From Candidatus Methylomirabilota bacterium (GTDB lineage: Bacteria; Methylomirabilota; Methylomirabilia; Rokubacteriales; CSP1-6), in NCBI GenBank assembly GCA_035709005.1, contig DASTFB010000132.1:33737-97736 (forward strand): DNA of 64,000 nucleotides, given 5' to 3'. A program made the translations under genes and the position numbers. Positions 26,545 through 54,414 of the stretch are shown in pieces. A model generated the notes under the pieces. It was not told where the DNA came from and did no database searches. It saw nothing but the letters and a program-made list of their open reading frames with translations. The first letter of the stretch is position 1. Each line of letters opens with the position of its first letter.

Positions 26545-26559
26545 GCAATGCCAGTGCCA
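26545..26559 (-). promoter_or_regulatory. Consensus sigma-54 promoter (TGGCAC-N5-TTGC) upstream of the DUF1508 gene
   Basis: The minus strand reads cTGGCACtggcaTTGCa. The predicted start site is about 27 nt upstream of the GTG with its SD. Confidence 0.4.
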
Positions 26560-26597
26560 GGCAAGTTTAGGTGCGCGTCGGACGTGTGCCTCCAGGA

Positions 26598-31007: not shown

Positions 31008-31168
31008 GGCTATGCGGGTCACGATACCGACCGGGGGCTGGCCCCGCAAGCCCGCGAGGATCCCACTTCCTTGCAGTTGAAGCCAACCCGGGCGATGCTC
31101 TCGGGCTGCCACCCTCATGCACGAGAGCTCGACCGACACGATCAACGGGTCTGGGCGAGGAGGCCACC

Positions 31169-31486
31169 ATGCTGGCGATGTGGGTCAAGGTTCGCATCAA
31201 GCCCGAAGGACGAGAGCGCTTCCTGAAGGCGATCGAAGTAGACGCGCTCGGATCGGAACGCGACGAGCCCGGTTGCGCGCGCTTCAACGTCCTGCAGGAC
31301 GCTCAGGACGAGAACGTCTACTATTTCTACGAGGTCTACAAGGACGAGGCTGCCCTCGAGGTCCATCGGAAGACGCCCCACTATGCCGTGTGGCGTGAGG
31401 CGGCCGATACGCTGGATGGCCCGACCCAGGCGACCCGCTGCGCCACAGTCTTTCCGACCGCTGACGCCTACTGGCGCAAGCGGTAG
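31169..31486 (+). CDS. Antibiotic-biosynthesis-monooxygenase (ABM) domain protein
   Basis: 105 aa (MLAMWVKVRIKPEGRERFLKAIE..). AGGAGG lies 7 nt upstream. Confidence 0.75.
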   Translation: MLAMWVKVRIKPEGRERFLKAIEVDALGSERDEPGCARFNVLQDAQDENVYYFYEVYKDEAALEVHRKTPHYAVWREAADTLDGPTQATRCATVFPTADAYWRKR

Positions 31487-31505
31487 CAAACCGGAGTCGA
31501 GCCCG

Positions 31506-33428: not shown

Positions 33429-33509
33429 CAGATCGGATCCGGCGCCCTCATGCCTCGAGCCGCGTCTCGAAGCATGAGGGCGATCGCGGCGCCACCGCCA
33501 CCGGGGGGA

Positions 33510-34610
33510 TCAGAGCTTGACGTTGTACTTTTTGGTCAGAAGCTCGCGGAGATACGTGCTGACCTCGGGGCTGGGCGACAGCGCTTTCTTGACCCCCGGC
33601 TCGACCTTCTTCCCCGCCTGCAGCGGATAGCCGCCGGTGACCTTCTTGCCTTTTTCGTGGAACTCGGGATCGGCATTGGTCTTGGCGGCCGCGATGGCGA
33701 AGGCGTCGATCGCCGCCGGCGGCGTGCCGGCCGGCATCCAGCCGATGATGCCGGCTTCGAACGTGAGCGCCGAGGCGGCCTGGAACGCGCCCCACACGGG
33801 GCCGCCGGGCTCCTTGCCGCGCAGCTGTTTGTAGACCTCGTACACGGACGGCAGGTCCTTCACCACGAGATCGCGCGCGGTGAAATTGCCGTCGGCGTCG
33901 GAGGACCCGCCGGTGAACAGCGGCACGGCCTTCTTGGCGTCCACCAGGGCGCGCACCTGGGTGAGATAGACGGAGGTGAACTGGAAGTCGAAATTGGTCT
34001 CGCCGCGCTCGAAGGCCAGTCGGATCGGGCCGCGACCGGGGAACCCGAGGACGGTCTTGATCGGCAGCTCCAGCAACTCGAAGGCCAGCAGCACCGGCAG
34101 ATCGCTGCCGGTCGCGGCGATGCCGCCGTAGACCAGGGGCACCTTCGGCTTCAGGAGGTCCGCGGGCGTCTGGATGCCGGTCGCCGGCGACGCGTAGACG
34201 ACCGGTCCGATCCCGATCGAATAGGCGATGCGCTTGTTGGCGAGGTTGTAGGCGACGCCCTTCTGCTTGAACATGAAGGGGAACGCGGTCGACGAGGTGG
34301 TGGAAAGGATGAGCAGGCCGTCGTCCTTGCCCTGCTTCTCGAAATGGTTGGCCCCCAGGATCGAGCCACCGCCGGGCATGGTGGTGACGTTGAAGGTCGG
34401 ATTGCCGGGGACGTGCTTGCTCAGAAACGGCGTCACGAAGCGGGTGGTGACCTCGCCGGCGCCGCCGGGCGCGAACGGCACGATCACGTCGATGGTCTTG
34501 CCGGCATAGAAATCGGCGGCGCGGGCGTACCGGGTCGGCCCCAGCGCGGCGGCGATCGTGGCGGCCGCGCCGGCGGCCAGCACCTCGCGACGGCTCGGAT
34601 GTGCGTTCAT
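33510..34610 (-). CDS. tctC: Tripartite tricarboxylate transporter substrate-binding protein (TctC/Bug family), Tat signal
   Basis: From the internal Met MNAHPSRREVLAAGAA.. Bug-family fold. Confidence 0.85.
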   Translation of the reverse strand: MNAHPSRREVLAAGAAATIAAALGPTRYARAADFYAGKTIDVIVPFAPGGAGEVTTRFVTPFLSKHVPGNPTFNVTTMPGGGSILGANHFEKQGKDDGLLILSTTSSTAFPFMFKQKGVAYNLANKRIAYSIGIGPVVYASPATGIQTPADLLKPKVPLVYGGIAATGSDLPVLLAFELLELPIKTVLGFPGRGPIRLAFERGETNFDFQFTSVYLTQVRALVDAKKAVPLFTGGSSDADGNFTARDLVVKDLPSVYEVYKQLRGKEPGGPVWGAFQAASALTFEAGIIGWMPAGTPPAAIDAFAIAAAKTNADPEFHEKGKKVTGGYPLQAGKKVEPGVKKALSPSPEVSTYLRELLTKKYNVKL

Positions 34611-34727
34611 GCGTTCTCCTTTCCTGGGATGCGGTGGCGTTTGGCCGGCGGCGGTCAGCGTAACCCGAAGGGGGGATGCCTGGCCAGCGCCCCACCCGGC
34701 GCCGGGCCAGACCCCGTGGACCATCGT

Positions 34728-35966
34728 TCAGCCGGCCAGGGCCAGCAGCGTATGGAGCAGCACGTTGGCCCCGCGCTCGATGTCCACGGCCTCGCTGGTC
34801 TCGTCCACCCGGTGGCTGCGGCCACCCTTCGAGGGAATGAAGATCATCCCCGCGTCGGTGATCCGGGCCAGGTTCTGGGCGTCGTGCCCGGCCGCCGAGT
34901 ACAGGCGCTGGGCTTTGAGCCCGAGCCGGTCGCAGGCCGTCTCGGCAGCCGCCATGACACGCTCCGCGAAGGACGTTGGTGCCGTGGCGGACAGCGGTCG
35001 GATCTCGACCCCGATTCCGCGCGTGCTGGCCACGGCCGTGGCCAGCGCCTCGACCGCCGGGGTCAGACGCGCGAGCACGCCGGGATCGGGGTCGCGCATC
35101 TCGTGGATCAGCTCCGTCCGCCCCGGCACGACATTGGCAGCGCCGGGATAAACCGCGACATAGCCGATGTTGCTGACGGTCACCGGGCTGCCGTCCGTGG
35201 TGATCAGCGCCCGCGCCTGCAGGGCGAAATCGGCGGCGGCCAGGAAGGCATCTCGCCGCCGGTCCATCGGCGTGGTCCCGGCGTGGTCGGCCTGGCCGCT
35301 GAACACGATGCGCGCCCGGCGCACCCCGACGATCCTGTCCACGATGCCGATGTGGAGGCCGGCCTCCTCGAGTCGCGCTCCTTGCTCGATGTGCAGCTCC
35401 ACGTAGGCGGCCACCGAGCCGGCGGGCGCCCGGGCTTCCGGGGCATGGAGGGCGTCGAACCCAGCGCGCCGCATCGCGTCCACCAGGCGATCGCCGTCGA
35501 GCGAGGCCAGGTCGGGAATGCGAGCCACATCGAGATTCCCCGCGAACGCCCGCGAGCCGAAGAGGCTTCCGTAACGCCCCTCCTCGTCGCTCCACGCCGC
35601 CACAGCCAGCGGGCGGGCGGGGCGAATTCCGGCCTCGCGCACGGTTTGCAGGCACTCGAGCCCGGCGATGACTCCGAGGGCTCCGTCGAGGGTCCCCCCC
35701 TCGGGAACGGTATCGATATGCGAGCCGGTGACGATCACCGGGTGGTCCGCCTGGAAGCTTCGGGCCCCCAGACCACCGAAGGTGTTGCCGGCGGGGTCGA
35801 TCCACGCTTCCAGCCCGGCGCTTCGTATCTCGGCCACCAACCAGGCCCGCGCGGCCTCGTGGGCGGGGCTCCACGCGGCGCGGCTCACCCCGCCGCCGGG
35901 CAGGGCGCCGAAGCCGGCCAGGGCACGCAGGCGAGAGTCGAGCCGCGAGGCGCAGACGTGGGTCAC
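34728..35966 (-). CDS. M20-family Zn-dependent amidohydrolase (allantoate amidohydrolase / N-carbamoyl-amino-acid hydrolase type)
   Basis: 412 aa (TGSHIDTVPEGG..DGALG; EEGRYG..). Confidence 0.8.
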   Translation of the reverse strand: MTHVCASRLDSRLRALAGFGALPGGGVSRAAWSPAHEAARAWLVAEIRSAGLEAWIDPAGNTFGGLGARSFQADHPVIVTGSHIDTVPEGGTLDGALGVIAGLECLQTVREAGIRPARPLAVAAWSDEEGRYGSLFGSRAFAGNLDVARIPDLASLDGDRLVDAMRRAGFDALHAPEARAPAGSVAAYVELHIEQGARLEEAGLHIGIVDRIVGVRRARIVFSGQADHAGTTPMDRRRDAFLAAADFALQARALITTDGSPVTVSNIGYVAVYPGAANVVPGRTELIHEMRDPDPGVLARLTPAVEALATAVASTRGIGVEIRPLSATAPTSFAERVMAAAETACDRLGLKAQRLYSAAGHDAQNLARITDAGMIFIPSKGGRSHRVDETSEAVDIERGANVLLHTLLALAG

Positions 35967-35992
35967 GCCGCGGCAGTATACGCCCGGACGCC
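35963..35992. promoter_or_regulatory. Conserved 30-nt block CACGSCGSGGCAGTATACGCCNNGACGCCG, site 1, containing the palindrome GGCAGTATACGCC; adjacent to TTGACT-N16-TATAGC
   Basis: 26 of 30 positions are identical to site 3. It lies in the divergent region between the M20 amidase gene and the amidohydrolase-2 gene. Confidence 0.5.
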
Positions 35993-36049
35993 GCTTGACT
36001 CACGGGGCGCCGTCCTCTATAGCGGCCGTGAGCAGACCGGGAGGCGACC

Positions 36050-36880
36050 ATGCTGATCGTCGATTCGCAGATCCACATCTGGCAGAACGCCAGGATGAGC
36101 GCTCACCATCGCCAGATCCCGACCTATTCGGTCGATGACGCGCTGGCCGAGATGGCCGGGGCCGGCGTCGATGGCGCGGTCATCCATCCGCCGAGCGCTT
36201 TGGGCGAGCCGGTCAACGCGCTCGCCGTCGAGGCGGTCCGCCTGCATCCCGACAAGTTCTGCATCCTCGGGCATTTCGACCTCCAGAGCCCGGATCGCGA
36301 GACCATCGTGGCTCGGTGGCGCGAGCGGCCCGGCATGCTCGGCTTTCGCTTCACCTTCAACCAGCCCCACCAGAAGGCCTGGTGGACCGACGGCTCGCTC
36401 GACTGGTTCTGGGCGGCGGCGGAGAAGGCCCAGCTGCCCGTGGGGCTCCTGGCCGGGGGCAACATGGCGGCCCTGGCGAAGATCGCCGAGCGGCATCCGG
36501 GCTTGAAGCTCCACATCGACCACCTCGGGCGCCATGGCGGCGGCAGCGGGCTGAAGGACGACGCGGCCTTCGCCGATCTCAAAGACACCCTGGCGCTCGC
36601 CCGGTTCCCCCACGTCGCGATCAAGATGTCGGGCGCGCCCAGCTATTCGAGCCAGCCCTATCCGTACCGAAACATCCACGACTACCTGCGCCAGATCTTC
36701 GAGGCGTTCGGTCCCGAGCGCTCGTTCTGGGGCACCGACATCACCCGTATGCCCTGTTCGTACCGGCAATGCGTGACGATGTTCACCGAGGAGCTGCCGT
36801 GGCTCCGGGGCCGCGACCTCGAGCGGGTGATGGGCGGCGCCATCGTCGACTGGCTCGGCTGGAAACGCCCCGCCGCCTGA
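36050..36880 (+). CDS. Amidohydrolase-2 family (TIM-barrel metal-dependent hydrolase/decarboxylase)
   Basis: 276 aa starting MLIVDSQIHIW.. with a metal-ligand pattern. Confidence 0.75.
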   Translation: MLIVDSQIHIWQNARMSAHHRQIPTYSVDDALAEMAGAGVDGAVIHPPSALGEPVNALAVEAVRLHPDKFCILGHFDLQSPDRETIVARWRERPGMLGFRFTFNQPHQKAWWTDGSLDWFWAAAEKAQLPVGLLAGGNMAALAKIAERHPGLKLHIDHLGRHGGGSGLKDDAAFADLKDTLALARFPHVAIKMSGAPSYSSQPYPYRNIHDYLRQIFEAFGPERSFWGTDITRMPCSYRQCVTMFTEELPWLRGRDLERVMGGAIVDWLGWKRPAA

Positions 36881-37004
36881 GCGCCCGCTGGCGGCGCGGG
36901 ACGGCGTTCAGGGCATCACCGCGCCTGTGTCGACGTTCCAGGCGCGGACCGCTCTCACCCTCGCCGAGTAGGTCTTTCCGGGGGTGCGGCAGGGCTGAAT
37001 CGCG

Positions 37005-38651
37005 CTACCGCAACGCCCCGCGATGGGAGAAGCGTGTCTCCTGGCTGGTGATGAACTCCAGGAGCGCGGCCTGGCCGTTCTCGGTGGCCTTGCGGGCCCG
37101 GGCGAAGGCGCCGGCGATGTCCTCGGGCCGCTCGACCCGCTCGCTCCAGCCGCCCAGGGCGCGCCCCAGATCCGCGTAGCGCCCGCCGATGTCGCGGGCG
37201 CCGAACTTGTCGTGAGACACGACGAGGTGCGGGATTTCGATGGCCATGGCCGAATTGTTGAGCACGACGGTGCAGACGGGGATGCCGCAGCGCACTGCGG
37301 TCTCGAAATCGAGCCCGGTCATGCCGAAGGCGGCGTCGCCCATGAAATTGACGCAGAACCTGTCGGGGGCGGCGAGCTTGGCGCCGATGATGAGGCCGAG
37401 CCCGGTGCCGAGCGCGTGGGACTTGCCCCAGCCGAGATAGCTGCGCGGCGAAACGGCCCGGTAGAAGGGCAGGAGCTGGTCGCGCGGGCTCCCCGAGTCG
37501 TGCGTGACGATCGCCTCTCGCGGGTCGACCGTGCGCATGAAGTCGGCGATGACCCGATAGGGATTGATCGGGACCTCCTTCGAGCCGAGGGTCGGCGCCC
37601 ACTCGGCCAGCCAGGCCGTGCGAACGCGCTCGAGCTCGGTGCGCACGTGCTCCCGCCCGGCGGGGCGGCCGCCCTGGGCCGTCACGGCCTCGATGAACTG
37701 ACGCAGCACCAGGCGCGCGTCCCCCAGCAGCGGGTAGTCGGCCGCGTAGCTCTTGTTGAGGTCCCGCTCGTCATTGGTGGCGTGGATGAGCGTCTTGCCG
37801 GCCGGGATGCTGGCGGCCATCCCGTGGCGGGTGAAGCTGCAGCCGATGCCGAAGACCACGTCGGCCTCGCGGAGATAGTGCAAGGTCGGCCCGCTCACGG
37901 ACGGGCCACCGGCGCCGAGCGCGAGCGGGTGGTCCTCGGGGAACGCGCTCTTGGCTTCCATCGTGGTCATGACCGGCGCTTGGAGCAGGTCGGCCAGCTC
38001 GAGCAGCTCGGCCGACGCCTCGGCGTACAGCACGCCCTGACCAGCGTGAATCACCGGCCGCCGCGCCTCGCGCAGCACCCGGGCGGCCGTCTCGACGTCG
38101 CGGGCATTGGCGCCGGCCGCCGTCGCCTTGACGGGCCGGTACGCCTCGATGAGGGCCTCAGGGACTTCTTCACTCACGACGTCGGCGGGGATCTCGACCA
38201 TCACCGGGCCCGGGCGGCCCATGCGCATCAGGCTCATGGCCCGGCGCATGACGTCCGCGATCTGCGTGCTCATGCTGACGGTCTCGACGGACTTCGTCAC
38301 CGACGCGTAGATGCGCGCCGAGCTGAACAGGGGGAAGACCTGCGCGCGGTCGCGCGGGTGCCCGAGCGGCAGGATCAGCATCGGCGTGGAGTCGGAGTAC
38401 GCGGTGGCCACGCCGGGAAAGGCGTTCTCGGCCCCGGGGCCGTACTGCATGCAGAAGACGGCGAGCGTCTTGCCGTTCCTCACCCGCGCATAGCCGTCGG
38501 CGATCCCCACGCCCACCCGTTCCTGACGGCAGAGCACGGGCCGGATGTCGGCCTTGGCCGCGGCCTCGATCACCGGGGTGGTGGGATAGGCGCTCAAGAA
38601 CTCGGCGCCCTCCATCTTCAGAATGCGGGCGATGGCCTCGACGACGTTCAC
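37005..38651 (-). CDS. Thiamine-pyrophosphate-dependent enzyme (acetolactate-synthase-like, three-domain)
   Basis: 548 aa with a TPP-binding motif (GDAAFGMTGLDFETAVR..NN). Confidence 0.8.
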   Translation of the reverse strand: MNVVEAIARILKMEGAEFLSAYPTTPVIEAAAKADIRPVLCRQERVGVGIADGYARVRNGKTLAVFCMQYGPGAENAFPGVATAYSDSTPMLILPLGHPRDRAQVFPLFSSARIYASVTKSVETVSMSTQIADVMRRAMSLMRMGRPGPVMVEIPADVVSEEVPEALIEAYRPVKATAAGANARDVETAARVLREARRPVIHAGQGVLYAEASAELLELADLLQAPVMTTMEAKSAFPEDHPLALGAGGPSVSGPTLHYLREADVVFGIGCSFTRHGMAASIPAGKTLIHATNDERDLNKSYAADYPLLGDARLVLRQFIEAVTAQGGRPAGREHVRTELERVRTAWLAEWAPTLGSKEVPINPYRVIADFMRTVDPREAIVTHDSGSPRDQLLPFYRAVSPRSYLGWGKSHALGTGLGLIIGAKLAAPDRFCVNFMGDAAFGMTGLDFETAVRCGIPVCTVVLNNSAMAIEIPHLVVSHDKFGARDIGGRYADLGRALGGWSERVERPEDIAGAFARARKATENGQAALLEFITSQETRFSHRGALR

Positions 38652-38664
38652 GGTTGGCGCTCCT

Positions 38665-39102
38665 TCAGGCTCTCGGCTCGGCGATGAAGACCGGGATCCG
38701 CCGCGCGGTCTTCGCCTGGTACTCCTCGTAGGGCGGATACGCCGCGACGGCGAGCTTCCACAGCCGCGCCCGCTCCGTCTCGTCGCTGACCTCGCGGACC
38801 CGCATCGGCTTGACGACGGTGTGGTCGCGGATCTCCACGCCGGGGTTCGCGCGCAGGTTGTACACCCAGACCGGGTGCGTCGGTGCGCCGCCCATCGAGC
38901 CGACGAGGACGTAGTTGGCGCCGTCCGTCACGCGCATCAGCGGGGTCTTGCGAATCGCGCCCGTTTTGTTGCCGGTGTGCGTCACGATGATCACCGGCAG
39001 GCCGGTGTCGCGGAGCGTGGTGCCTTCCCTCCCGCCACTGCGCTCGTAGAGCTCCACCTGCTCGCGCACCCACTGCCGGGGGCTGGGGACATAAGGGGGC
39101 AT
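38665..39102 (-). CDS. Deazaflavin (F420)-dependent nitroreductase family protein (DDN/PF04075)
   Basis: 145 aa (WVREQVELYERSGGREGTTLRDTGLPVIIVTHTGNKTGAIRKTPLMRV..). Confidence 0.75.
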   Translation of the reverse strand: MPPYVPSPRQWVREQVELYERSGGREGTTLRDTGLPVIIVTHTGNKTGAIRKTPLMRVTDGANYVLVGSMGGAPTHPVWVYNLRANPGVEIRDHTVVKPMRVREVSDETERARLWKLAVAAYPPYEEYQAKTARRIPVFIAEPRA

Positions 39103-39267
39103 CGTGATCTCCTCGTTGAGTGGTGACTCGGCACACTAGGAGCGATCCGCGCACGTGTCAAGGCTCACGGGCTCGGCTCAGCAACGGCTTCGACAACATT
39201 CAGCGCGTGGAGGCCGGGCGCGCCCCGTTCTGGGTGGTCCCCGAGCTGCGGAGCTAGGCGGCGCCCC

Positions 39268-40176
39268 TCAGTTGGCCACGGACGGCCGGAGACGCTCGGC
39301 GATGATGTCGATGGTCTGGTGGATCGCCGGGTAGGTCGCGTAGGACACCTCGAGGGCGATGTGGCCGCACCCGAGGTCCCGAAAGCCGCGCAGCTCATCC
39401 GCGATCGCTGGGGGGGAGCCGCCGATCACGTGGCGCCCGCGGATGAGCGCCATGTCCACCGCGGGCCGATGCACGCCCTCGATCACGATGGGGATGCGCA
39501 GGGACAGGGCGGGTTCACCCTCGCGACCGACCTCTTTCCAGAGGCGGCGGAGTGTGTCCACGCCTTGGCGGAACGCGTCGAGCGTGGTCGCGGTCGCGTG
39601 CCAGCCGTCGCCGAGCCGGGCGACGCGGCGGAGCGCGCCCTCGCTGTTGCCGCCGACGTAGAGCGGCGGCCGCGGCTTCTGGAGCGGCATCGGGGAGAAC
39701 GTCACCCCATCCAGCCGGTGACGCTTCGTCTGGATCTTCGGGTGCTCCTGCGTCCACAAGGTACGGAACAGCTCCAGGGCTTCCTCGCTCCGGCTGACGC
39801 GCTCCTTGAAGGGCACGCCGAGCGCGTCGAATTCTCCTTCCAGCCAGCCGATGGCGGCGCCCACGATCAGGCGGCCGCCGGAGAGGACGTCCACGCTGGC
39901 CAGCAGCTTGGCCACCGGAACCGGCGAGCGGTACGGGAGGATCACGACACTGGTGCCCAGCGCGATGCGCTGGGTGACACCAGCGAGCCACGGCAAGACC
40001 GCGAGCGGATCGAGCATATGCTCGCGATAGATCACGTTCGCCTGGTCGGGCACGATCACGTGGTCGGTGACCCAGACGGAATCGAGGCCGCGCTCCTCGG
40101 CGCGGCGCGCGACCTCGAGCATGCGCGACACCTCGATCGGACGGCCATAGTGCGGCAAGCAGACACCGAGCTTCAT
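39268..40176 (-). CDS. LLM-class (luciferase-like) F420-dependent oxidoreductase
   Basis: From the internal Met MKLGVCLPHYG.. TIM-barrel LLM pattern. Confidence 0.75.
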   Translation of the reverse strand: MKLGVCLPHYGRPIEVSRMLEVARRAEERGLDSVWVTDHVIVPDQANVIYREHMLDPLAVLPWLAGVTQRIALGTSVVILPYRSPVPVAKLLASVDVLSGGRLIVGAAIGWLEGEFDALGVPFKERVSRSEEALELFRTLWTQEHPKIQTKRHRLDGVTFSPMPLQKPRPPLYVGGNSEGALRRVARLGDGWHATATTLDAFRQGVDTLRRLWKEVGREGEPALSLRIPIVIEGVHRPAVDMALIRGRHVIGGSPPAIADELRGFRDLGCGHIALEVSYATYPAIHQTIDIIAERLRPSVAN

Positions 40177-40182
40177 CGGGCG

Positions 40183-40195
40183 GCAGTATACTCCT
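40183..40195. promoter_or_regulatory. GGCAGTATACTCC, site 2 of the same palindromic motif
   Basis: It lies in the 35-nt divergent spacer between the LLM gene and the frameshifted ribH2 gene. Confidence 0.4.
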
Positions 40196-40211
40196 GTCAC
40201 GGAGGGACACC

Positions 40212-40703
<492 letters not shown>

Positions 40704-40727
40704 CCTATCCCGGCTGGGAGCCCGGGC

Positions 40728-41556
40728 GGTGAAGACGGTCCTCATCACTGGTGCCGCCGGAGACGTCGGCGCGCATCTCAGCCGAGAGCTGGCCGGAAAA
40801 TACAAGCTGCGGCTGTCCGACAAGCGCCCCCTGAAGGCGGCCAAGGGGCAGACGTTCGTGAAAGCCGACGTCGCGAAGATGGCCGACGCGCTCCGCATCA
40901 CCAAGGGCGTCGACGCCATCGTGCATCTTGGCGGGTATTCGGTGGAAGGCCCGTGGCCGGCCATTCTGCAGGCGAACATCATCGGCTGCTACAACGTGTT
41001 CGAGGCGGCGCGGCGCAACGGCGTGAGGCGCATCCTCTTCCCGACCAGCAACCATGCCGTCGGCTTCTACCGCCGGGACCAGACGATCGACCATCGCGTC
41101 TACATCAAGCCCGACAGCCGGTACGGCGTCTCCAAGGTCTTCGGCGAGGCGCTCGGCAGCCTCTATGCCGACAAATACGGCATGGAGGTCTTCATGATAC
41201 GCATCGGCAATGTGAACCCCGCGCCGATCGACAGGCGCCGGCTCTCGATCTGGATCAGCCCGAGAGATCTCGCGCAGCTCGTCTCGATCGGGATCGACCA
41301 TCCCGACGTCAAGTTCGAGATCGTGTACGGCATCTCCCGGAACACGCGCGCCTGGTACGATAACTCCAACGCCTTCCGTCTCGGCTATCGGCCTCAGGAC
41401 GACAGCGAAGTCCACGCCGCCGCGGTGCTGGCGCGAGAGAAACCGAGCGACGACGTGATCGCGGAGACCCACCAGGGCGGCAGCTTCTGCACCGCCGAGG
41501 ACGTGCCGAATCCTGCCGCGCCGAGGAAACCCGCGAACAAAGGCAGGAGGAAATGA
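40728..41556 (+). CDS. udh: Uronate dehydrogenase-like NAD-dependent SDR
   Basis: From a GTG at about 40728 (VKTVLITGAAGDVGAHL..). Similar to Udh throughout (HLGGYSVEGPW..ILQANIIG.YN..YGVSK..). Confidence 0.7.
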
Positions 41557-41584
41557 CGAGGGACGTCCTTGACCTTCGCCCTCC

Positions 41585-41605
41585 CCCCGCAGAAGCCGTG
41601 CGGGG
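41585..41605. terminator. GC-rich hairpin (7-bp stem CCCCGCA/TGCGGGG, 7-nt loop) between the convergent udh and CoA-transferase genes
   Basis: Seen in the sequence. There is no U-tract, which is typical of high-GC genomes but makes this weak evidence. Confidence 0.25.
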
Positions 41606-41661
41606 CCGCGCGATCGCCGCCACCATCGCGTCCCGGGCGGCCGTTCGTCCCTAGAGAGCGA

Positions 41662-42855
41662 TCAGACCACGCCGTCTTTGGCGAGCGCGGTGATCTCCGC
41701 CTCGCTGTACCCGAGCTCGACCAGGATGTCGTGCCGATGCTGGCCGAGGAGTGGCGACGGGCCGATCGTCGTCGGTGAGGCGGAGAGCTTGATCGGGTTG
41801 CCCACGGTCACGTATCGCCCACGCACCGGGTGCTCGATTTCGACGATCATCTCTCGCTCCCGAAGATGCGGATCCCCGAGCACCTCGCCGGTGTCCAGGC
41901 AGGCCCCACAGGGGACGCCGGCGGCTGCCAGGATCTTCATGACCTCGTGTTTGGAGCGCTGGGACGTCCACGCCTCGATCAGCCCGTCGACCTCGACCTT
42001 GCGCTGCCAGCGTGCGTCCGCGGTTTCGAAGCGCGTGTCGCCGATGAGGTCGTCCCGCCCCATGGCGCGCAGCAGTGGGTGCCACATCTGCTGCTGCGCG
42101 TAGATGAAAACGTAGTCGTTGGCGCCGCCGGGCGCGCAGCGGTACGTCGTCCCCGGCACATTGGTACCGAGCTGATTGCCGGAGCGCTCTCGCGCCTTGC
42201 CGTGGCGCTGGTGGTCACGCAGGCTGACGCGGATGAGGTTGACGACCGCGTCTTGCATCGACACCTCGACCTGCTGCCCCTGGCCGGTGGTGTGGCGCTG
42301 CATGAGCGCGGCGAGGATGCCGATCACGCAGTGCATGCCGGTACCGGAGTCGCCGATCGCAGGCCACATGTACATCGGCGGGCCGTCGGCGACGCCGGTC
42401 ACGCTCATGGCCCCGCCCATGGCTTGCGCGATGGGCTCGTAGCTCTTGTAGTCGCGGTAGGGCCCGTACGAACCGAAGCCCTTGATGCTCGCGAACACCA
42501 ACCGTGGATTGATCGCCTGGAGAATCGGATAGCCGAAGCCGAGGCGCTCGATGACGCCGGGGCCGAAGTTCTCCAGCAGCACGTCGGCCGTCTTCAGCAG
42601 GGTCCGGAAGACGTCCTTGCCGCGCGGGTGCTTCAGATTGAGCGTCAGGCTTCGCTTGTTCGCGTTGAACGACAGGTAGAAGAGGCTGTCGGCGTCGGGT
42701 CGGTCCCGGTGGGTGTGCCGAGCCGGGTCGCCCATGTCCGGCTCCTCGACCTTGATGACGTCGGCGCCCAGCCAGGCTAGCATCTGGCCGCAGGACGGCC
42801 CCGCCTGGTTGTTCGTGAGATCGACGACCCGGATACCCGCCAGCGCCTCGCCCAT
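41662..42855 (-). CDS. CoA-transferase family III (CaiB/BaiF/Frc-like)
   Basis: 397 aa (IRVVDLTNNQAGPSCGQMLAWLGADVIKVE..). Confidence 0.85.
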   Translation of the reverse strand: MGEALAGIRVVDLTNNQAGPSCGQMLAWLGADVIKVEEPDMGDPARHTHRDRPDADSLFYLSFNANKRSLTLNLKHPRGKDVFRTLLKTADVLLENFGPGVIERLGFGYPILQAINPRLVFASIKGFGSYGPYRDYKSYEPIAQAMGGAMSVTGVADGPPMYMWPAIGDSGTGMHCVIGILAALMQRHTTGQGQQVEVSMQDAVVNLIRVSLRDHQRHGKARERSGNQLGTNVPGTTYRCAPGGANDYVFIYAQQQMWHPLLRAMGRDDLIGDTRFETADARWQRKVEVDGLIEAWTSQRSKHEVMKILAAAGVPCGACLDTGEVLGDPHLREREMIVEIEHPVRGRYVTVGNPIKLSASPTTIGPSPLLGQHRHDILVELGYSEAEITALAKDGVV

Positions 42856-42971
42856 CGTCCGTATCCTCCCGCCAAGATTCTAAAGCCGTCCGGTCTTCGA
42901 GGAGCAGCCAGGGCCATTGACACGGGAGTGCGACACGCTACCATCACGGCCACAATGCGGCTCAAGGCTCA

Positions 42972-45383
42972 GTGAGCGTGGACACGGTGCGGACGGTCAC
43001 GGGGTACTGCGGGTTCTGCGCGGTGCACTGTCCGGTCGTCACGACGGTGGACGGGGCGCGGATCGTCTCGGTCGAACCGGATGGCGCGCATCCGTATGGC
43101 GGTGCGATCTGTTCCAAGGGGCGGGCGGCGCCCGAGTTCCACGACCACGGCGACCGCGTGAACGTTCCACTGCGCCGCACGCGGCCGAAGACGGACCCCG
43201 ACCCCGGCTGGAAGCCCTGCCGCTGGGACGAGGCGCTCGACCTGATCGCGGACAAGCTGCTCGCAGTGCGCGCGGCCGCCGGCCCGCAGGCGGTGGCGTT
43301 CAACAAGGGGACGACCGGCGGCACCGCACTCACGGATTCCGAGCGCTGGCTCCAGCGGCTCATCAATCACTTCGGGACGCCGAACATCGGCGGGACGACC
43401 CATCTGTGCCAGTGGCCGCGCGACACCGGCGGGGCCCAGTACACGTTCGGCACGCACGCGCTGCCCATGCCCGACGTCCACCGCAGCGCCGCGATCGTGC
43501 TCTGGGGCTCGAACCCGAACGGGAACTTCCTGAGTCTGGCCACCGACGTCGCGGCGGCGAAGGCGCGGGGGGCCAAGCTGCTGGTGATCGACCCGCGCCG
43601 GGTGGGTCTCGCCAACAAGGCCGACGTCTGGCTTCAGGTCCGGCCGGGCACCGATGGAGCGCTCGCGCTGGGCCTGATCCATCTCCTGATCCGCGAGCGC
43701 CGATACGACGACGAGTTCGTGCGGGGGTGGACGAATGCGCCCTTTCTCGTGCGCGACGACACGGGAGCGCTGCTCACCGGCGTGGACCTCGACGGTGCAT
43801 CGTCGGCGTCCGGCGTGTACGTGGCGGTAGGGGAAAGGGACGGCCGCCTCGTGCGCTACGACGCCGGGCGCGGCGCGTACGCGAGCGATGCGCGCCTGGC
43901 GCTGGGTGGGTCGGGCGACGTCCGGCTGGCCGACGGGCGCCGAGTGACGTGCCGACCCGTGTTCGAGCGCCTGGCCTCGATCGTCGCCGGGTATCCGCCC
44001 GATGTGGTCGCGGAGACCACCGGCGTGTCGGCCGGGAAGATCGTGGCGGCCGCGCGGTTGCTCGGCGAGCACCGCCCGGTATCGCACTATTTCCACAACG
44101 GCCTCGTGCAACACACGAACGCCACGCAGGCGGCCCGGGCCATCGAGGTCCTCTACGCGTTGATCGGCGATTTCGACCGGCCGGGGGGCAATGTGGCGGG
44201 CCCGTCGCCACGGGTGCACGACGTCAGCGCCAAAGCGGTGCTGCCCAGCGCCCTGGCGGCGATGCGGCTGGGACGCCCGGAGCGGCCGATCGGCCCGCCG
44301 GCCGCGCCGGGTGTCGTCACCGCCTACGATCTCTACCGCGCGATCCTCGACGGCCAGCCGTACCGGGTGCGGGCGTTGGTGTCATTCGGCGCCAACATGC
44401 TGCTGGCCAACGGCGACTCGCTACGGGGCCGGCGCGCGCTCGAACAGCTCGAGTTCTTCGCGCAGATCGAGCTCACGCACACGCCGACCAGCCGCTTCGC
44501 CGACGTGCTGCTGCCCGCCGCGAGCTGGATGGAATCGTCGGCCCTCAAGGTCGGTCACCGCTATCCGCCGCAGGCCATGGCTCACATCCAGTTCCGGGAG
44601 GCCGTGGTGCCGCCCCTGTACGAGCGCCGCTCGGACGTCGAGATCCTCTTCGGCCTCGCCACGCGGCTCGGCCTGGGCGACGTCTTCTGGGGCGGTGACG
44701 TCGAGGCCGGGTATCGCTACCTGCTGGAGCCGGCCGGCGTCAGCCTGGATGCCCTGCGGGGGCGGCCGTACGGGATCGCCGCCACCGGGACGCCATTGCG
44801 CTACCGGAAGTTCGCGGAGATCGAGGAGGGCCGCGGAGTGGCGCGGGGATTCGCGACGCCGACCAGGAAGGTGGAGATCTTCGCCACTCGCTTCGCCGAG
44901 CACGGCTTGCCGGCGCTGCCGCACTACGTCGAGCCGGCCCTGAGTCCGCGGAGCCGCCCGGACCTGGTCGAGCGCTTCCCTCTCGTGCTGACCAACGCCA
45001 AGCGCCCGCAATACCTCCACAGCCAGCTCCGCGGCCTGCCTAGCCTCAGAAAGACTGCGCCCAACCCCACCGCCGAGATCCATCCCGACACCGCAAAGCG
45101 CTTCGACGTGACGTCAGGCGAATGGATCCTCGTGGAGACCCCGAGCGGCCGGGTCCGCGCGCAGGCGCACGTCACCGACACGGTGCTCGCCGGTGTCGTC
45201 TGCTGCTCCCACGGCTGGTGGGAAGCGTGTCCGGAGCTGGACCTGCCGGGCTTCGACCCTTTCACCGAAGCCGGCGCCAACCAGAACCTCCTCGTCCTCA
45301 ACGACCAGCACGACCCGGTCAGCGGCGGTACCCCCCACCGCTCCACGCTCTGTCGTGTGGTCAAGGCCGCGCGGCCTTCCTAG
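42972..45383 (+). CDS. Molybdopterin-dependent oxidoreductase (cytoplasmic; formate-dehydrogenase / nitrate-reductase-like)
   Basis: 803 aa with an N-terminal [4Fe-4S] Cys cluster (CGFCAVHCPV..C), no Tat signal and a GTG start. Confidence 0.85.
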   Translation: MSVDTVRTVTGYCGFCAVHCPVVTTVDGARIVSVEPDGAHPYGGAICSKGRAAPEFHDHGDRVNVPLRRTRPKTDPDPGWKPCRWDEALDLIADKLLAVRAAAGPQAVAFNKGTTGGTALTDSERWLQRLINHFGTPNIGGTTHLCQWPRDTGGAQYTFGTHALPMPDVHRSAAIVLWGSNPNGNFLSLATDVAAAKARGAKLLVIDPRRVGLANKADVWLQVRPGTDGALALGLIHLLIRERRYDDEFVRGWTNAPFLVRDDTGALLTGVDLDGASSASGVYVAVGERDGRLVRYDAGRGAYASDARLALGGSGDVRLADGRRVTCRPVFERLASIVAGYPPDVVAETTGVSAGKIVAAARLLGEHRPVSHYFHNGLVQHTNATQAARAIEVLYALIGDFDRPGGNVAGPSPRVHDVSAKAVLPSALAAMRLGRPERPIGPPAAPGVVTAYDLYRAILDGQPYRVRALVSFGANMLLANGDSLRGRRALEQLEFFAQIELTHTPTSRFADVLLPAASWMESSALKVGHRYPPQAMAHIQFREAVVPPLYERRSDVEILFGLATRLGLGDVFWGGDVEAGYRYLLEPAGVSLDALRGRPYGIAATGTPLRYRKFAEIEEGRGVARGFATPTRKVEIFATRFAEHGLPALPHYVEPALSPRSRPDLVERFPLVLTNAKRPQYLHSQLRGLPSLRKTAPNPTAEIHPDTAKRFDVTSGEWILVETPSGRVRAQAHVTDTVLAGVVCCSHGWWEACPELDLPGFDPFTEAGANQNLLVLNDQHDPVSGGTPHRSTLCRVVKAARPS

Positions 45384-45974
45384 GCCGCGCGGCCACCCAG
45401 GCGGCCACCGCGGACCCGGCGACGGCGAGGGCCGCGGCGGCGAACGGAATCTGGTAATTTCCGGTCGCGTCGAACAGCCAGCCGCCCAGGAAAGGCCCAA
45501 TCGCGCCGCCCAGGCCGCCACCCGCCTGGACCACCCCGAGGATCGCGCCCAGATGTGGCCCCGAGAAGAAGTCGGCGGGAATCGCCGAGAGCTGCGCGAT
45601 GCGCATGCCGAAGCCGAATCCGGAGGCCGTGCAGAGCAGGAGAAGCGGTAGATCGTGAGGGCCTCGCAACGCGCCCTGACCCGCAAGGGCCAGAGCCAGA
45701 CCGAGAACCAGTCCGCTGATGGTCACGACCGTTCGCGCTCCCCGGCGATCGGAGAGCCAGCGGCGACGGACGCCCAGACCACGAAGCACAGCCAGCTCAG
45801 CGAGTAGCCGAGCGCGGTCGGGCCGCGTCCCCACACGAACACTTCGAGGATCGCGAATAAAAGAGTGCGAACGTGGATCGCGGAGCCCACGCGAGAACGG
45901 TAGCGCAACTCACCCGGATCGCCGCTGTGTGGTAGTGATGGCGGCATCGTCGAGCCACAGGACCATGGCGGCAT
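45361..45974 (-). pseudogene. MFS transporter remnant (C-terminal half only, oxalate/formate-antiporter-like), frameshifted near 45800
   Basis: The 157-aa ORF matches TM7-12 of the intact MFS at 62619..63902 (WLSDRRGARTVVTISGLVL...GGLGGAIGPFLGGWLFD). The N-terminal six-helix half is absent; that space is occupied by alkA. Confidence 0.5.
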
Positions 45975-47379
45975 AGGCCCGCCAGGGCCGCCACCGCTCC
46001 GCCCGACGCTGGAGCAGAGCCGGCGAAGGTCTGGCCAGGTGCCGTCGCATGGCGCGGAGAAGACCGTGATCGCCCACGGGGAAGGCGTCGGGCTCGCGCA
46101 GCGCGCGCATCGCGATGTACTCCGCGGTCCAATCGCCGATGCCGGGCAAGGTCACCAGTTCGGCCACCGTGTGCTCCACCGAGCCGGTCGTCCGAAGCAG
46201 CGTTGGATCTCTCATCACCGCAGCCGCCAGCGACGAGATGGCCGCGGCCCGCGCGCGGGGGACTCCGATGCTCGAGAGATCAGCATGGGCCAGCGTCTTG
46301 GCGTCCGGAAACAGGACCCGCAGGTCACCACCCGAGCTCGGCGTGCCGAGTCGCTCGCCGAAGGTCGCCGCCAGCCGTCCGGCCAGCGTCGATGCCGCGG
46401 CGACGCTCACCTGCTGGCCGAGCGTGGCCCTCACGGCGAGCTCGAACGCGTCCCACGCTCCCGGAACCCGCAGTCCCGGGCGTGCGGCGAGGCGGGACGC
46501 CAGCGCGGGATCACGGCCGAGGTGCGTGGCGATCGGCTCCGGATCCGCGTCGAGGTCGAAGAGGTGGCGCAAGCGTGCCGCAATGGCGGCCAGCGCGGGC
46601 AACCGATCGACGGTGATCGTGGCCAGGAGAAACGGCTCGGCGGCCGACCGGATCTCCACGATCCCCTGCGTGCCGTCCAGGCTGATCGTCCGGCGGTAGA
46701 CCCCGTTCTCGACCGACTCGACACCCGGAATCGCCCGCCGTGCGAGAAATGCCAATACCCCGGCCCAGTCGTACGGAGGCCGGTATGGTAGGCGCAGCGT
46801 GAGCCGAGACGCCGTCGATGCGGCCGCCCGCCGCAGGTCACGCGGGGGGCGGCCGAATGTCCGCTGCATCACCGCGTTGAAGCGGCGGACACTGCCGAAC
46901 CCCGCTCCGAGCGCGACCTGCGTCAGGGGCAGGCCGGTATCGGTAATGAGTTGCTTGGCGAGAAAGACGCGCTGCACTTGCAGGACCGCAACGGGGGAGG
47001 CTCCGACGTGCCGTCGGAACAGACGCCGCAAGTGCCGGCTCCCGACGCCCAGCCGCGAGGCGAGTGCTTCGAGGTTCGTGGCCTCGGGCCCGTCCTCGGC
47101 GAGGAGGCGGAGCGCACGGTCGACCGTCGCCACCGTCCCGCTCCACGCCGGAACTCCCGGGCTGATCTCGGGCCGACAACGGAGGCAGGGCCTGAACCCG
47201 GCAGAGTATGCCGCCGCCGCCGTCGGAAAGAAGACACAGTTTTCGAGCCTGGGCGTCGGGGCCGGACAAATCGGCCGGCAGAAGATTCCCGTGGACAGTA
47301 CCCCGGTCAGAAAGCGCCCGTCGAAGCCTCGATCCCGGGCCTGGACAGCGCGATAGCACGCCTCGTGGTCAAGATCCAT
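45910..47379 (-). CDS. alkA: AdaA-AlkA fusion: Ada zinc-binding domain, AraC-type HTH, and DNA-3-methyladenine glycosylase II
   Basis: 489 aa with an N-terminal Cys motif (FCRPICPA..CLRCRPE), an AraC HTH and a C-terminal HhH-GPD glycosylase. Confidence 0.85.
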   Translation of the reverse strand: MDLDHEACYRAVQARDRGFDGRFLTGVLSTGIFCRPICPAPTPRLENCVFFPTAAAAYSAGFRPCLRCRPEISPGVPAWSGTVATVDRALRLLAEDGPEATNLEALASRLGVGSRHLRRLFRRHVGASPVAVLQVQRVFLAKQLITDTGLPLTQVALGAGFGSVRRFNAVMQRTFGRPPRDLRRAAASTASRLTLRLPYRPPYDWAGVLAFLARRAIPGVESVENGVYRRTISLDGTQGIVEIRSAAEPFLLATITVDRLPALAAIAARLRHLFDLDADPEPIATHLGRDPALASRLAARPGLRVPGAWDAFELAVRATLGQQVSVAAASTLAGRLAATFGERLGTPSSGGDLRVLFPDAKTLAHADLSSIGVPRARAAAISSLAAAVMRDPTLLRTTGSVEHTVAELVTLPGIGDWTAEYIAMRALREPDAFPVGDHGLLRAMRRHLARPSPALLQRRAERWRPWRAYAAMVLWLDDAAITTTQRRSG

Positions 47380-47466
47380 GCCGCTCGATTCCGATGATAG
47401 ACGCCGGCCGGACGAGACGTCTCGCCGTTTTCGGACACGATTGGCGACGTCCCGAGACGCTCCGAG

Positions 47467-48450
47467 CTAGGCGCCGAGCGTCGTGAAGTAGCCCGGCGGA
47501 TAGCGCTCGCCGGCGACGGCACCGGGGCGAAACACCTCGCTCAGCTGCTCCAGCTCTTCGGGACTGAGCGCCACGTCGACCGCCGCGGCGTTGGCCTCGA
47601 CGTAACGCCGCTGCTTGGTGCCGGGAATCGGCACGACGTCGTCCCCGCGGCTCAGCAGCCAGGCCAGCGCGACCTGTGCCGCGGTGAGATCGTGGGCGGC
47701 GCCGATCCGCTCCAGCGCGTGCACGAGCTCCAGATTGCGCTCCAGGTTCCGGGGATGGAATCGGGGATGGATCCGGCGCCGGTCGTGCGGCGCGATGTCG
47801 TCCAGCCTGCGGATGTTGCCGGTGAGCAGCCCGCGGCCGAGCGGCGAGTAGGCCACGAACCCGGTTCCGAGCCGGCGGCAGGCGGGCAGGATTTCAGCTT
47901 CCACGTGGCGGGCCCACAACGAGTACTCGGTCTGCAGGGCGGCGATGGGGTGGATCCGGTTCGCGCGCTCGAGGGACTTCGGGCCGGCCTCCGACAAGCC
48001 GAGATACCGGACCTTGCCCGCGCGCACGAGCTGCGCCATGGCGCCAACAGTGTCCTCGATCGGCACGTCAGGGTCGATGCGGTGCAGGTAGTAGAGATCG
48101 ATGATGTCGACGCCGAGCCGCCGAAGGCTGGCCTCGCACGCCCGTGGCACGTAGTCCGGCCGTCCGTTGTAGCCCTTCTTCCCGCCCGGCAGATCGAGGT
48201 TGCCGAACTTCGAGGCGAGGACGACCTCGTGGCGGCGGCCCTGAATGGCCTGCCCGATGAGCTGCTCGTGCCGCCCCCCGGAATAGGCGTCCGAGGTGTC
48301 GAAAAAGTTGACACCCAGATCGAGGGCCCGCCGCATCGTCGCGATCTGCTCGGCGTCGTCCCGTTCCCCGAAGCTCGTGGTGGCGCTGCCGGGACCCAAT
48401 CCGATCGCCGAGACCACCAACCCGCCCCGGCCCAGGGCCCGCGTCTTCAT
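47467..48450 (-). CDS. Aldo/keto reductase
   Basis: 327 aa (DTSDAYSGG..; LASKFG). Confidence 0.9.
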   Translation of the reverse strand: MKTRALGRGGLVVSAIGLGPGSATTSFGERDDAEQIATMRRALDLGVNFFDTSDAYSGGRHEQLIGQAIQGRRHEVVLASKFGNLDLPGGKKGYNGRPDYVPRACEASLRRLGVDIIDLYYLHRIDPDVPIEDTVGAMAQLVRAGKVRYLGLSEAGPKSLERANRIHPIAALQTEYSLWARHVEAEILPACRRLGTGFVAYSPLGRGLLTGNIRRLDDIAPHDRRRIHPRFHPRNLERNLELVHALERIGAAHDLTAAQVALAWLLSRGDDVVPIPGTKQRRYVEANAAAVDVALSPEELEQLSEVFRPGAVAGERYPPGYFTTLGA

Positions 48451-48499
48451 CGTGGTCCTCCCTTCGCCGCCCAGCCTTTTCGGGCGGGAGCCTGCGCAG

Positions 48500-48529
48500 C
48501 ACGGCGGGGCAGTATACGCCTTGACGCCG
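48500..48529. promoter_or_regulatory. Conserved block, site 3 (CACGGCGGGGCAGTATACGCCTTGACGCCG), overlapping the -35 of TTGACG-N18-TACAAT
   Basis: It lies in the divergent region between the aldo/keto reductase gene and the first ACAD gene. Confidence 0.5.
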
Positions 48530-48548
48530 AGAGCCCGGCCTCCCTACA

Positions 48549-49787
48549 ATGAACCATCGTTCAGTCCCCGGATCCCCTCAGGAGGGCGACTTGGATCTCA
48601 CGCTGAATTCGGAGCAGGAGGCGTTCCGCACCCGCGTCCGAGCATGGCTCAAGGCGAACATCCCCGCCGAGTGGCAGTCGCGCCTGGCGGCCAGCGCCGA
48701 CGTCCCGCGCCCCGAGGCATACGACCTGCTGCGTGGCTGGCAACGCCGGCTGTACGAGGCCGGGTTCATCGGGCTGACCTGGCCCAAGGAGTACGGGGGG
48801 CAGGGCCTGACCTTTCTCGAGGAGATGATCCTGCACCAGGAGATGGCGCTGGCCAAGGCGCCGCCGATTCTCAACATCCTCGGGGTCGGCATGGCTGGCC
48901 CCACGATCTTCGCGTACGGGACCGAGGCCCAGAAACAGCGCTACCCGGCGAAGATCCTGTCCTGCGAGGAAATCTGGTGTCAGGGCTATTCCGAGCCCAA
49001 TGCGGGCTCGGACCTGGCGTCGCTGCAGACGCGGGCCGTCAAGGACGGGGAGTACTGGGTGATCAACGGGCAGAAGGTGTGGACCTCGCTCGCCCACGTC
49101 GCCGACTGGATGATGCTCCTGGCCCGCACCGATCCTGACGCGCCCAGGCACAAGGGCATCACGTACTTCCTGCTCGACATGCACGCGCCCGGCGTGACGG
49201 TGCGCCCGCTCCGCCAGATCACCGGCGATCCCGAGTTCAACGAGGTCTTCTTCGACAACGTCCGCGTCCACGAGTCCCAGATCCTGGGCGGGCTGAACAA
49301 CGGCTGGACGGTGGGGCTCACCACGCTGATGTACGAGCGCCTGGCCCTGGGCTTCGGCCTGCAGGTACGCCTGCGCATCGCGCTCGACGGCCTGGTCGAG
49401 CTGGCCCGGCGCATGGAGAAGGATGGCCGTGTCATCACCAAGGATCCCGTGATGCGGCAGAAGATCGCCCAGGTGTGGATCGAGACCGAATGCTTGAAGT
49501 ACACGGGCGCCCGGGCCATCACCCGCCTGCTGCGCGGTGAGATCCCGGGACCGGAAGCCTCGACCGGCAAGATGATCTGGGTCGAGACCCACCAGCGGCT
49601 GCAAGACCTGGCCATGGAGATCCAGGGGCCCTACGGTCAGCTCGCTCGCGGCTCGGACTGGTCGGTCGAGGGCGGGCTCTGGCAGTATACGTTCCTCCGC
49701 TCGCGCGCGAACTCCATCGAGGGCGGCACGACGGAGGTGCAGAAGAACATCATCGGCGAGCGGCTCCTGGGCCTGCCCAAGGGTTAA
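48549..49787 (+). CDS. Acyl-CoA dehydrogenase family protein
   Basis: 412 aa with ACAD N-terminal, middle and C-terminal domains. The start may instead be a TTG at about 48591 behind GGAGGG. Confidence 0.85.
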   Translation: MNHRSVPGSPQEGDLDLTLNSEQEAFRTRVRAWLKANIPAEWQSRLAASADVPRPEAYDLLRGWQRRLYEAGFIGLTWPKEYGGQGLTFLEEMILHQEMALAKAPPILNILGVGMAGPTIFAYGTEAQKQRYPAKILSCEEIWCQGYSEPNAGSDLASLQTRAVKDGEYWVINGQKVWTSLAHVADWMMLLARTDPDAPRHKGITYFLLDMHAPGVTVRPLRQITGDPEFNEVFFDNVRVHESQILGGLNNGWTVGLTTLMYERLALGFGLQVRLRIALDGLVELARRMEKDGRVITKDPVMRQKIAQVWIETECLKYTGARAITRLLRGEIPGPEASTGKMIWVETHQRLQDLAMEIQGPYGQLARGSDWSVEGGLWQYTFLRSRANSIEGGTTEVQKNIIGERLLGLPKG

Positions 49788-54412: not shown

Positions 54413-54414
54413 CG

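Follow-up and report, generated by a model that had tools for sequence, protein, structure and literature searches.

Leaderless promoters have been described in Actinobacteria and Deinococcus-Thermus (Zheng et al., 2011, PMC3160421; Cortes et al., 2013, PMC3898074; de Groot et al., 2014, PMC4007540). A TANNNT hexamer about 10–12 nt upstream of start codons marks leaderless genes, the middle three positions carrying little information in high-GC phyla (PMC3160421), and the −10 element of Mycobacterium tuberculosis is TANNNT without a −35 consensus (PMC3898074). Here we examine a recurring motif, GGCAGTATAC, in a 64,000-nt stretch of Candidatus Methylomirabilota bacterium (assembly GCA_035709005.1, contig DASTFB010000132.1, positions 33,737 to 97,736; hereafter the window), which an earlier note had read as the operator of a dimeric transcription factor. 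We consider that the motif probably represents −10 boxes of leftward leaderless promoters, with two copies arising by duplication, one independent symmetric promoter and one coding coincidence. As in the described systems, a TAnnnT hexamer stands a few bases before GTG or ATG, without a Shine-Dalgarno sequence (SD) and without a recognisable −35 box, in a high-GC genome and at many genes. The present case differs from those systems in its phylum, Methylomirabilota, in a modal spacing of 8 nt behind the hexamer, which is a little above the usual length, and in the hexamer of an M20 peptidase gene, whose middle bases are frozen (TATACT) where they are normally of low information in high-GC phyla. 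A full-text literature search with “leaderless” and the phylum names found no paper.

All four copies of the motif previously reported were found at their places in the window. The 9-mer GCAGTATAC occurs four times, starting at 35973, 40183, 48509 and 49682 (sites 1 to 4), every copy on the plus strand, against an expected count of 0.01 from 100 dinucleotide shuffles of the window, and the GTATAC hexamers of the whole window are those four only. For the 13-mer GGCGTATACTGCC with at most two mismatches, five matches were seen against 1.19 expected, a number reached in 2 of the 100 shuffles; the fifth match, GGCAGTGTCCGCC on the minus strand at 46884–46896, was set aside as noise. Sites 1 and 3 share a 30-nt block with 26 of 30 identical positions (87%) and a copy spacing of 12,536 nt, as had been noted; the copy at site 3 lies at 48500–48529 as reported, and that at site 1 lies at 35964–35993 rather than 35963–35992. 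The Rfam scan of the whole window returned zero matches, and the motif thus belongs to no known RNA element.

Read on the minus strand, the copies have in common the 10-mer GTATACTGCC, followed at sites 1 to 3 by five further bases and GTG or ATG, which gives the intergenic copies the form G-TATACT-GCC-N5-RTG. The minus strand reads GGCG-TATACT-GCCGCGGC-GTG at site 1, GGAG-TATACT-GCCGCCCG-ATG at site 2, GGCG-TATACT-GCCCCGCC-GTG at site 3 and AACG-TATACT-GCCAGAGC-CCG at site 4. The TATACT hexamers, which belong to the TAnnnT class, occupy 35975–35980, 40185–40190 and 48511–48516 at the three intergenic sites. This anatomy and its spacing are direct observations: at site 1 (GTG 35966) and site 2 (ATG 40176) the hexamer is separated from the start codon by 8 nt with no SD between, and at both sites the GTG or ATG after N5 is a real gene start. 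Site 3 departs from the leaderless spacing, its GTG being a relic and the ATG of the AKR gene lying 52 nt downstream with its own SD. A −35 box 17 nt upstream was not visible at any site when the sequence was read by eye.

The gene at site 1 encodes an M20 peptidase/amidohydrolase (34728–35966, minus strand; Pfam PF01546), whose homologues carry the source name N-carbamoyl-L-amino-acid hydrolase; its promoter and gene start span 35964–35993 of the same strand (CGGCGTC-CG-GGCG-TATACT-GCCGCGGC-GTG), and GTG 35966 opens an open reading frame (ORF) of 412 aa. The gene at site 2 encodes an F420-dependent LLM-class oxidoreductase of 302 aa (39268–40176, minus strand; PF00296), with homologues named “TIGR03619 family F420-dependent LLM class oxidoreductase”. 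Both starts are correctly placed, because the majority of listed homologues match the two products exactly in length (412 aa for M20, 302 aa for LLM), and their N-termini align. We infer that both genes are leaderless. On this proposal, TATACT would be the −10 hexamer bound by a housekeeping-type RNA polymerase holoenzyme without a recognisable −35 box, transcription would start at the GTG or ATG or 1–2 nt before it, and the resulting mRNA, with neither leader nor SD, would be translated directly from its 5' end. Site 1 would thereby drive the M20 hydrolase gene and site 2 the F420-dependent LLM gene.

The proposal is supported by the conservation of the M20 promoter, which is likewise directly observed. 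Among the related loci compared (numbered L001 and so on), 88 form the M20 set; the TATACT footprint covers 80 M20 loci with 47–98% protein identity. In 74 of the 80 loci, in 68 unique contexts, exact TATACT is found no more than 45 nt before the start, and its spacing to the in-frame start is 8 nt in 32 loci, 10 nt in 22, 9 nt in 8 and 6 nt in 3. The C at −8 is invariant in all 68 contexts. The base before the hexamer is G in 31 contexts, C in 16, T in 15 and A in 6, and the G that completes GTATAC is therefore present in 46%. What the footprint preserves is TATACT alone, and the flanks are merely GC-rich and lineage-specific; with the preceding base and the flanks variable, neither GTATAC nor the 13-mer GGCGTATACTGCC is conserved, contrary to a motif-wide footprint. 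No extended dyad beyond GTATAC was seen by eye around TATACT in any M20 promoter subgroup.

Within the window, too, the symmetry is modest. Of the “near-perfect palindrome” of the earlier note, only the hexamer GTATAC is left at three of the sites (1, 3 and 4), where the two arms, GGC and GCC, miss mirror positions by one base, and the longer palindrome AGTATACT exists at site 2 only. Palindromic operators of the TetR, LexA and FadR types likewise overlap promoter elements between divergent genes; unlike them, the GGCAGTATAC motif is symmetric over 6 bp and its symmetry is unconserved, and TGAAC-N4-GTTCA at 48550–48563 fits such an operator much better. As for a wider distribution, the 21-nt block GGCAGTATACGCCNNGACGCC gave 2 matches in 185,579 species genomes, in an Acidobacteria metagenome-assembled genome (MAG) and an Ectothiorhodospiraceae MAG; the chance expectation is a few hits by a rough, composition-based hand estimate that is not tool output, and the observed number, at or below it, does not speak for a conserved 21-mer. 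Nor does the block look like a dispersed repeat, a miniature inverted-repeat transposable element or an insertion-sequence remnant: no transposase and no longer repeat around the block were found, the genome collection held two matches, and Rfam gave none. One of these two matches, at 6881–6909 of L003 (Ectothiorhodospiraceae MAG, JAFIFV010000036.1), reads TATACT-GCCCCCTC-ATG on the other strand and precedes an unannotated ORF whose product starts MNPLYLLDASVYIFRAWF; it is either fortuitous or an example of this promoter layout in another phylum.

Sites 1 and 3 had been counted with site 2 as three divergent intergenic regions. Comparison with the related loci shows that the two are not independent, being two copies of one M20/ACAD spacer. 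In L004–L010, whose M20 protein is 80–82% identical to that of the window, the M20 gene is divergent from an ACAD1–ACAD2 operon across a spacer of 89 nt in L004–L008 and L010 and of 182 nt in L009. The spacer of the relatives aligns base for base with 48494–48600 of the window, taking in the ACAD −35 box TTGACG, the −10 box TACAAT, the 5' region, and GGCGTATACTGCCCCGCC followed by GTGCTGC. By alignment with the spacers of L004, L005 and L009, site 3 (48500–48529, minus strand) is the ancestral M20 promoter beside the ACAD operon, now facing AKR. It retains, at 48494–48502 of the minus strand, a relic of the first three M20 codons, GTG CTG CGC (GTG CTG CAC in L005–L008); the relatives continue GTG CTG CAC GTT as M20, and in the window unrelated sequence follows GTG CTG CGC and runs into AKR. 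The relic GTG at 48502 does not share the reading frame of AKR, which is identified by a Pfam match and has its ATG at 48450 and its own SD, giving a leader of about 52 nt if transcription starts near 48503.

An ACAD1 homologue and the palindrome of the ACAD promoter accompany M20 in 49 of the 88 loci, at 55–82% M20 identity, and because of this the M20–ACAD adjacency, itself directly observed, is taken to be ancestral; the arrangement of the window recurs in 98%-identical relatives only. The segment between the block copies (35994–48499, about 12.5 kb) is absent at this place in the relatives, where M20 abuts ACAD1. It carries genes for Amidohydro_2, a TPP enzyme, F420H2 quinone reductase, LLM, a ribH-like protein, an epimerase, a CoA-transferase, a molybdopterin oxidoreductase, an Ada-AlkA fusion and AKR, and domain annotation found no integrase or transposase in it. 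An insertion or rearrangement of about 12.5 kb would have parted the M20 gene and the ACAD operon; some 30 nt, comprising the promoter and the start codon, would have travelled as a copy with M20 and become site 1, and the old copy would have stayed by ACAD with its three relic M20 codons as site 3, pointing at AKR. The 26/30 identity of sites 1 and 3 is explained by this rearrangement with its promoter copy. The opposite course, in which the relatives' arrangement arose by deletion between ancestral repeats, was ruled out, since site 3 keeps GTGCTGC outside the function of the repeat and M20–ACAD adjacency is widespread at 55–82% identity. A mobile island was also rejected on the lack of any integrase or transposase found.

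The same direct repeats invite another explanation, namely that the 30-nt copies at 35964 and 48500 are the ends of an island, a recombination scar or att-like site with GTATAC as the crossover core. They do bound exactly the segment absent in relatives, and what follows M20 downstream varies across nearly all lineages examined. Against this, the segment yielded no integrase, transposase or tRNA gene, the repeat is an M20 promoter with its start codon and is conserved at loci without any history of the insertion, and sites 2 and 4 are not at breakpoints; we regard an att-like origin as highly improbable. The M20 gene is at a rearrangement hotspot. Its downstream neighbour changes nearly per lineage (phn operon, polysaccharide deacetylase, lipase with CoA-transferases, TctC/TctA), and the ACAD side stays syntenic while this neighbour changes in L004, L005, L009 and the window.

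Both 30-nt blocks were also said to abut a σ70-like −35/−10 pair. This held at site 3, where the promoter scan flagged the ACAD operon promoter TTGACG-18-TACAAT (48521–48550, plus strand), which is conserved in L004, L005 and L009 and stands back-to-back with the −10 box of site 3, 4 nt apart. At site 1 the scan flagged none. A putative rightward promoter, TTGACT-17-TATAGC (35995–36023, plus strand), was read there by eye for the Amidohydro_2 gene (Pfam match; ATG 36050, SD GGAGG), and it escaped the consensus scan because TATAGC has no final T.

Site 2 would be an independent promoter. It lies, as reported, in the 35-nt spacer between the LLM ATG (complement of 40174–40176) and the ribH-like ATG at 40212, and its core AGTATACT (40185–40192) is an 8-bp palindrome that presents TATACT on both strands. 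Leftward, the arrangement TATACT-GCCGCCCG-ATG on the minus strand is what a leaderless LLM gene would show. Rightward, a gap of 19 nt with the SD GGAGGG (40201–40206) parts the plus-strand TATACT from the ribH-like ATG, and the symmetric core may thus also supply TATACT to the rightward ribH-like gene, with a short leader and an SD. LLM orthologues have TATACT-N8-ATG in the window and L092, TACGCT-N8-ATG in L094 and L098, and a leadered form with an SD in L096. The exchange of TATACT for TACGCT, with the distance to the ATG unchanged, is ordinary turnover of a −10 hexamer whose position is fixed, which is the behaviour of a −10 box and not of an operator. That site 2 might be a third product of the duplication behind sites 1 and 3 was considered and rejected, as the sequences upstream are only marginally similar (about 7 of 10, with a gap) and LLM orthologues carry their own −10 box there.

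Bidirectional promoters with −10 symmetry have been described (Warman et al., 2021, in PMC10268837), and AGTATACT likewise gives a −10 box to each strand in a 35-nt divergent spacer; overlap of the opposite-strand hexamers is found at site 2 only. In the canonical class the starts are 18 bp apart and −7T and −11A are reciprocally paired. Site 2 differs in that its hexamers are offset by 2 bp and the starts are predicted to lie about 21–23 bp apart. The ribH-like (DMRL synthase) gene at 40212–40703 runs through frames 1, 3 and 1, that is, with two compensating frameshifts. The region of the first shift is identical in the independent Logan contig L001, and in a 98%-related JGI contig an intact gene of 154 aa is called at this position; the gene is either a pseudogene or an assembly error.

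Site 4 is of another nature. It lies inside ACAD1, 129 nt ahead of the ACAD2 ATG at 49820, as stated earlier, and there GGCAGTATAC (49681–49690, plus strand) spans the codons TGG CAG TAT ACG, for W-Q-Y-T. The window reads CTC TGG CAG TAT ACG in this region, and the equivalents are TGGCACTACACG in L004 (CTG TGG CAC TAC ACG), TGGCACTATACC in L005 (CTC TGG CAC TAT ACC) and TGGCACTACACC in L009 (CTC TGG CAC TAC ACC). The rare codon TAT had been taken as a sign of DNA-level selection, a reading that fails because L005 uses TAT without the motif and the relatives read TGG CAC TAY ACS. A single His-to-Gln change in the conserved W-x-Y-T peptide is what creates the motif here. From these sequences, site 4 is a coding-sequence coincidence, not an element.

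Beyond the motif itself, the layout recurs widely. Source names of the homologous proteins assign the window to Methylomirabilota/Rokubacteria. TAnnnT before candidate gene starts of the window peaks at an offset of 8 nt (n = 5), with 10 cases at offsets 6–10 and about 0.6 per offset elsewhere. Examples are TATAAT-8-ATG 16788, TAGACT-8-ATG 21790, TAGAAT-7-GTG 51336, TAGGCT-6-ATG 59839 and TATGAT-7-ATG 59909. In 706 kb of relatives, with M20 genes removed, offset 8 has 22 cases and offset 9 has 10 over a background of about 3, and 25 different hexamers lie behind the peak. Judged from these offsets, leaderless expression seems common in this Methylomirabilota genome. The starts at 16788, 21790, 51336, 59839, 59909 and 63902 have TAnnnT 6–8 nt upstream and no SD, a pattern shared by many genes of housekeeping and metabolism; Pfam matches for such genes include NUDIX, peptidase C26, gamma-glutamyltranspeptidase and an MFS transporter, and the genes at 16788 and 21790 are unannotated.

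Several observations weigh against the leaderless promoter proposal as it stands. Counted from its first T, the hexamer lies 14 nt before the start codon, 1–2 nt beyond the typical figure (PMC3160421), and a leader of 1–2 nt is thus possible. Sites 1, 2 and 3 have the exact 10-mer GTATACTGCC in common when other nearby leaderless promoters use many hexamers, and duplication accounts for this word at sites 1 and 3, not at site 2; the rearrangement account, for its part, gives no origin for the 30-nt duplication. The M20 −10 box is TATACT in 62 of 71 unique spacers among L004–L091, and the ACAD −10 box of the same spacers, 25–30 nt off, drifts (TAGAAT 20, TATCAT 19, TACAAT 10, TATGAT 8). The fixed C at −8 is not required by RNA polymerase contacts alone, and the conservation of the middle three bases of TATACT is not accounted for by generic RNA polymerase contacts.

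Some of these points have been the strength of the operator reading, by which a transcription factor binds GGCGTATACTGCC over the leftward −10 box and next to the rightward −35 box and co-regulates M20, LLM/ribH, AKR and the ACAD operon. An identical GTATACTGCC at three promoters, against about 25 hexamers at other leaderless promoters, would suit a bound operator, as would a hexamer frozen across the phylum beside a drifting ACAD −10 box and the recurrence of GGCGTATACTCCCC ahead of an unrelated cupin gene in L009. However, the dyad spans 6 bp where about 12 bp or more would be looked for, and its symmetry-making G stands in 31 of 68 orthologous promoters; the flanks of the 13-mer are lineage-specific, with no conservation beyond the core promoter element. 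Strand and start-codon spacing are fixed, LLM orthologues exchange the hexamer for TACGCT, and two of the three intergenic copies are one duplicated promoter. The 2 matches of GGCAGTATACGCCNNGACGCC, at or below a rough, hand-made chance guess, and the failure to find a local TetR-, IclR- or GntR-type gene in the window annotation add to this. The suggestion of one regulon falls on similar grounds: the copies lie on one strand, sites 1–3 keep a fixed 8-nt spacing to GTG or ATG, and LLM orthologues swap to TACGCT. What stands of the operator reading is that the motif is non-random, lies in promoter regions and is a DNA-level signal at three intergenic sites; its identity as an operator did not hold, and we consider co-regulation through GGCGTATACTGCC quite unlikely. 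The two readings differ in what they expect of other genomes. If the copies are promoters, matches to GGCGTATACTSCC and TATACT-N6-10-RTG should lie nearly all at −10 positions on the coding strand; if they are operators, matches to GGCGTATACTSCC should occur in both orientations at variable distances.

A second alternative retains the promoter and changes the polymerase. TATACT without a −35 box might be the element of an alternative, group-2, stationary-phase-like sigma factor, with M20, LLM and similar genes forming one sigma regulon. TATACT or CTATACT without a −35 consensus has been proposed as the −10 element of E. coli σS (PMC5650638), and the C at −8, invariant in 68 unique M20 contexts, together with the absence of a visible −35 box 17 nt upstream at any site when read from the sequence, would agree with such a class. 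The comparison is a lead only: E. coli σS promoters have the same hexamer and no −35 consensus, while here the phylum is unrelated and −13C is not enriched, the base at −13 being C in 16 of 68 promoters only. Moreover, σS is a proteobacterial factor, LLM orthologues have TACGCT at the same place, and the argument rests on resemblance to the E. coli consensus. By this analogy a σS-like regulon appears improbable. Slightly less so, and still unlikely, is the broader idea that TATACT may define a class of promoters served by a sigma factor of their own or by a −10-region regulator, a phylum-wide leaderless regulon; it is prompted by the invariance of all six positions of the M20 hexamer across Methylomirabilota while the ACAD −10 box drifts, and by the extended word at LLM, cupin and other promoters. 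The cupin case, GGCGTATACTCCCC at 8916–8921 of L009, equals the M20 promoter word of L004 and lies 21 nt upstream of a Cupin_2 gene with an SD (AAGGAGGAG); by its sequence it is another TATACT promoter at an unrelated gene.

A better operator candidate than the GGCAGTATAC motif is found at the ACAD promoter. The perfect palindrome TGAACCATCGTTCA (TGAAC-CATC-GTTCA, 48550–48563) comes right after the ACAD −10 box TACAAT, overlapping it, and also overlaps the predicted ACAD transcription start. The element also stands upstream of ACAD1 homologues among L004–L091. TGAAY-N4-RTTCA has 77 matches in 525 kb of related loci, every one of them in ACAD-promoter context, whatever the −10 hexamer; the window holds one other near-match only, at 34717–34730 with one mismatch, which is at chance level. 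We propose TGAACCATCGTTCA as a strong candidate repressor operator for the ACAD operon, and in some lineages the element could form a 5' hairpin instead.

The earlier note saw no obvious regulator gene in the window. In fact an Ada/AraC-AlkA fusion, an ECF-type sigma factor, a sigma-54 activator and HrcA are present, and the statement is not fully correct, though none is a typical local partner; the window regulators are not obviously linked to the GGCAGTATAC motif. All on the minus strand, the fusion combines an Ada Zn-finger, an AraC helix-turn-helix and an AlkA glycosylase (45910–47379), the ECF-type sigma factor has DUF6596 and TPR domains (3635–4948), and an NtrY-like kinase occurs with the sigma-54 activator (8240–11836). 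Local AT skew is strong, at +0.17 to +0.24 at 26001–34000, −0.20 at 54001–56000 and +0.18 at 62001–64000. These regions match membrane-protein genes, namely cytochrome oxidase and TctA (minus strand), Liv permeases (plus) and an MFS transporter (minus), and the skews are probably a codon-composition effect.

Taken as a leaderless promoter, the motif is real but ordinary: it is of a known kind, and its duplication and repositioned relic are neat yet ordinary genome evolution. Its value is mainly corrective, as a short AT-rich “palindrome” recurring between the genes of a high-GC genome can be a leaderless −10 box read on the wrong strand, and apparently independent motif copies can be one promoter duplicated by rearrangement. 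The relic promoter, now aimed at the newly adjacent AKR gene after the rearrangement, is a candidate driver of that gene. More broadly, these loci give evidence, at the level of sequence, for a wide use of leaderless promoters in Methylomirabilota (Rokubacteria), an uncultured phylum of soil; this layout bears on the annotation of gene starts in Methylomirabilota MAGs.

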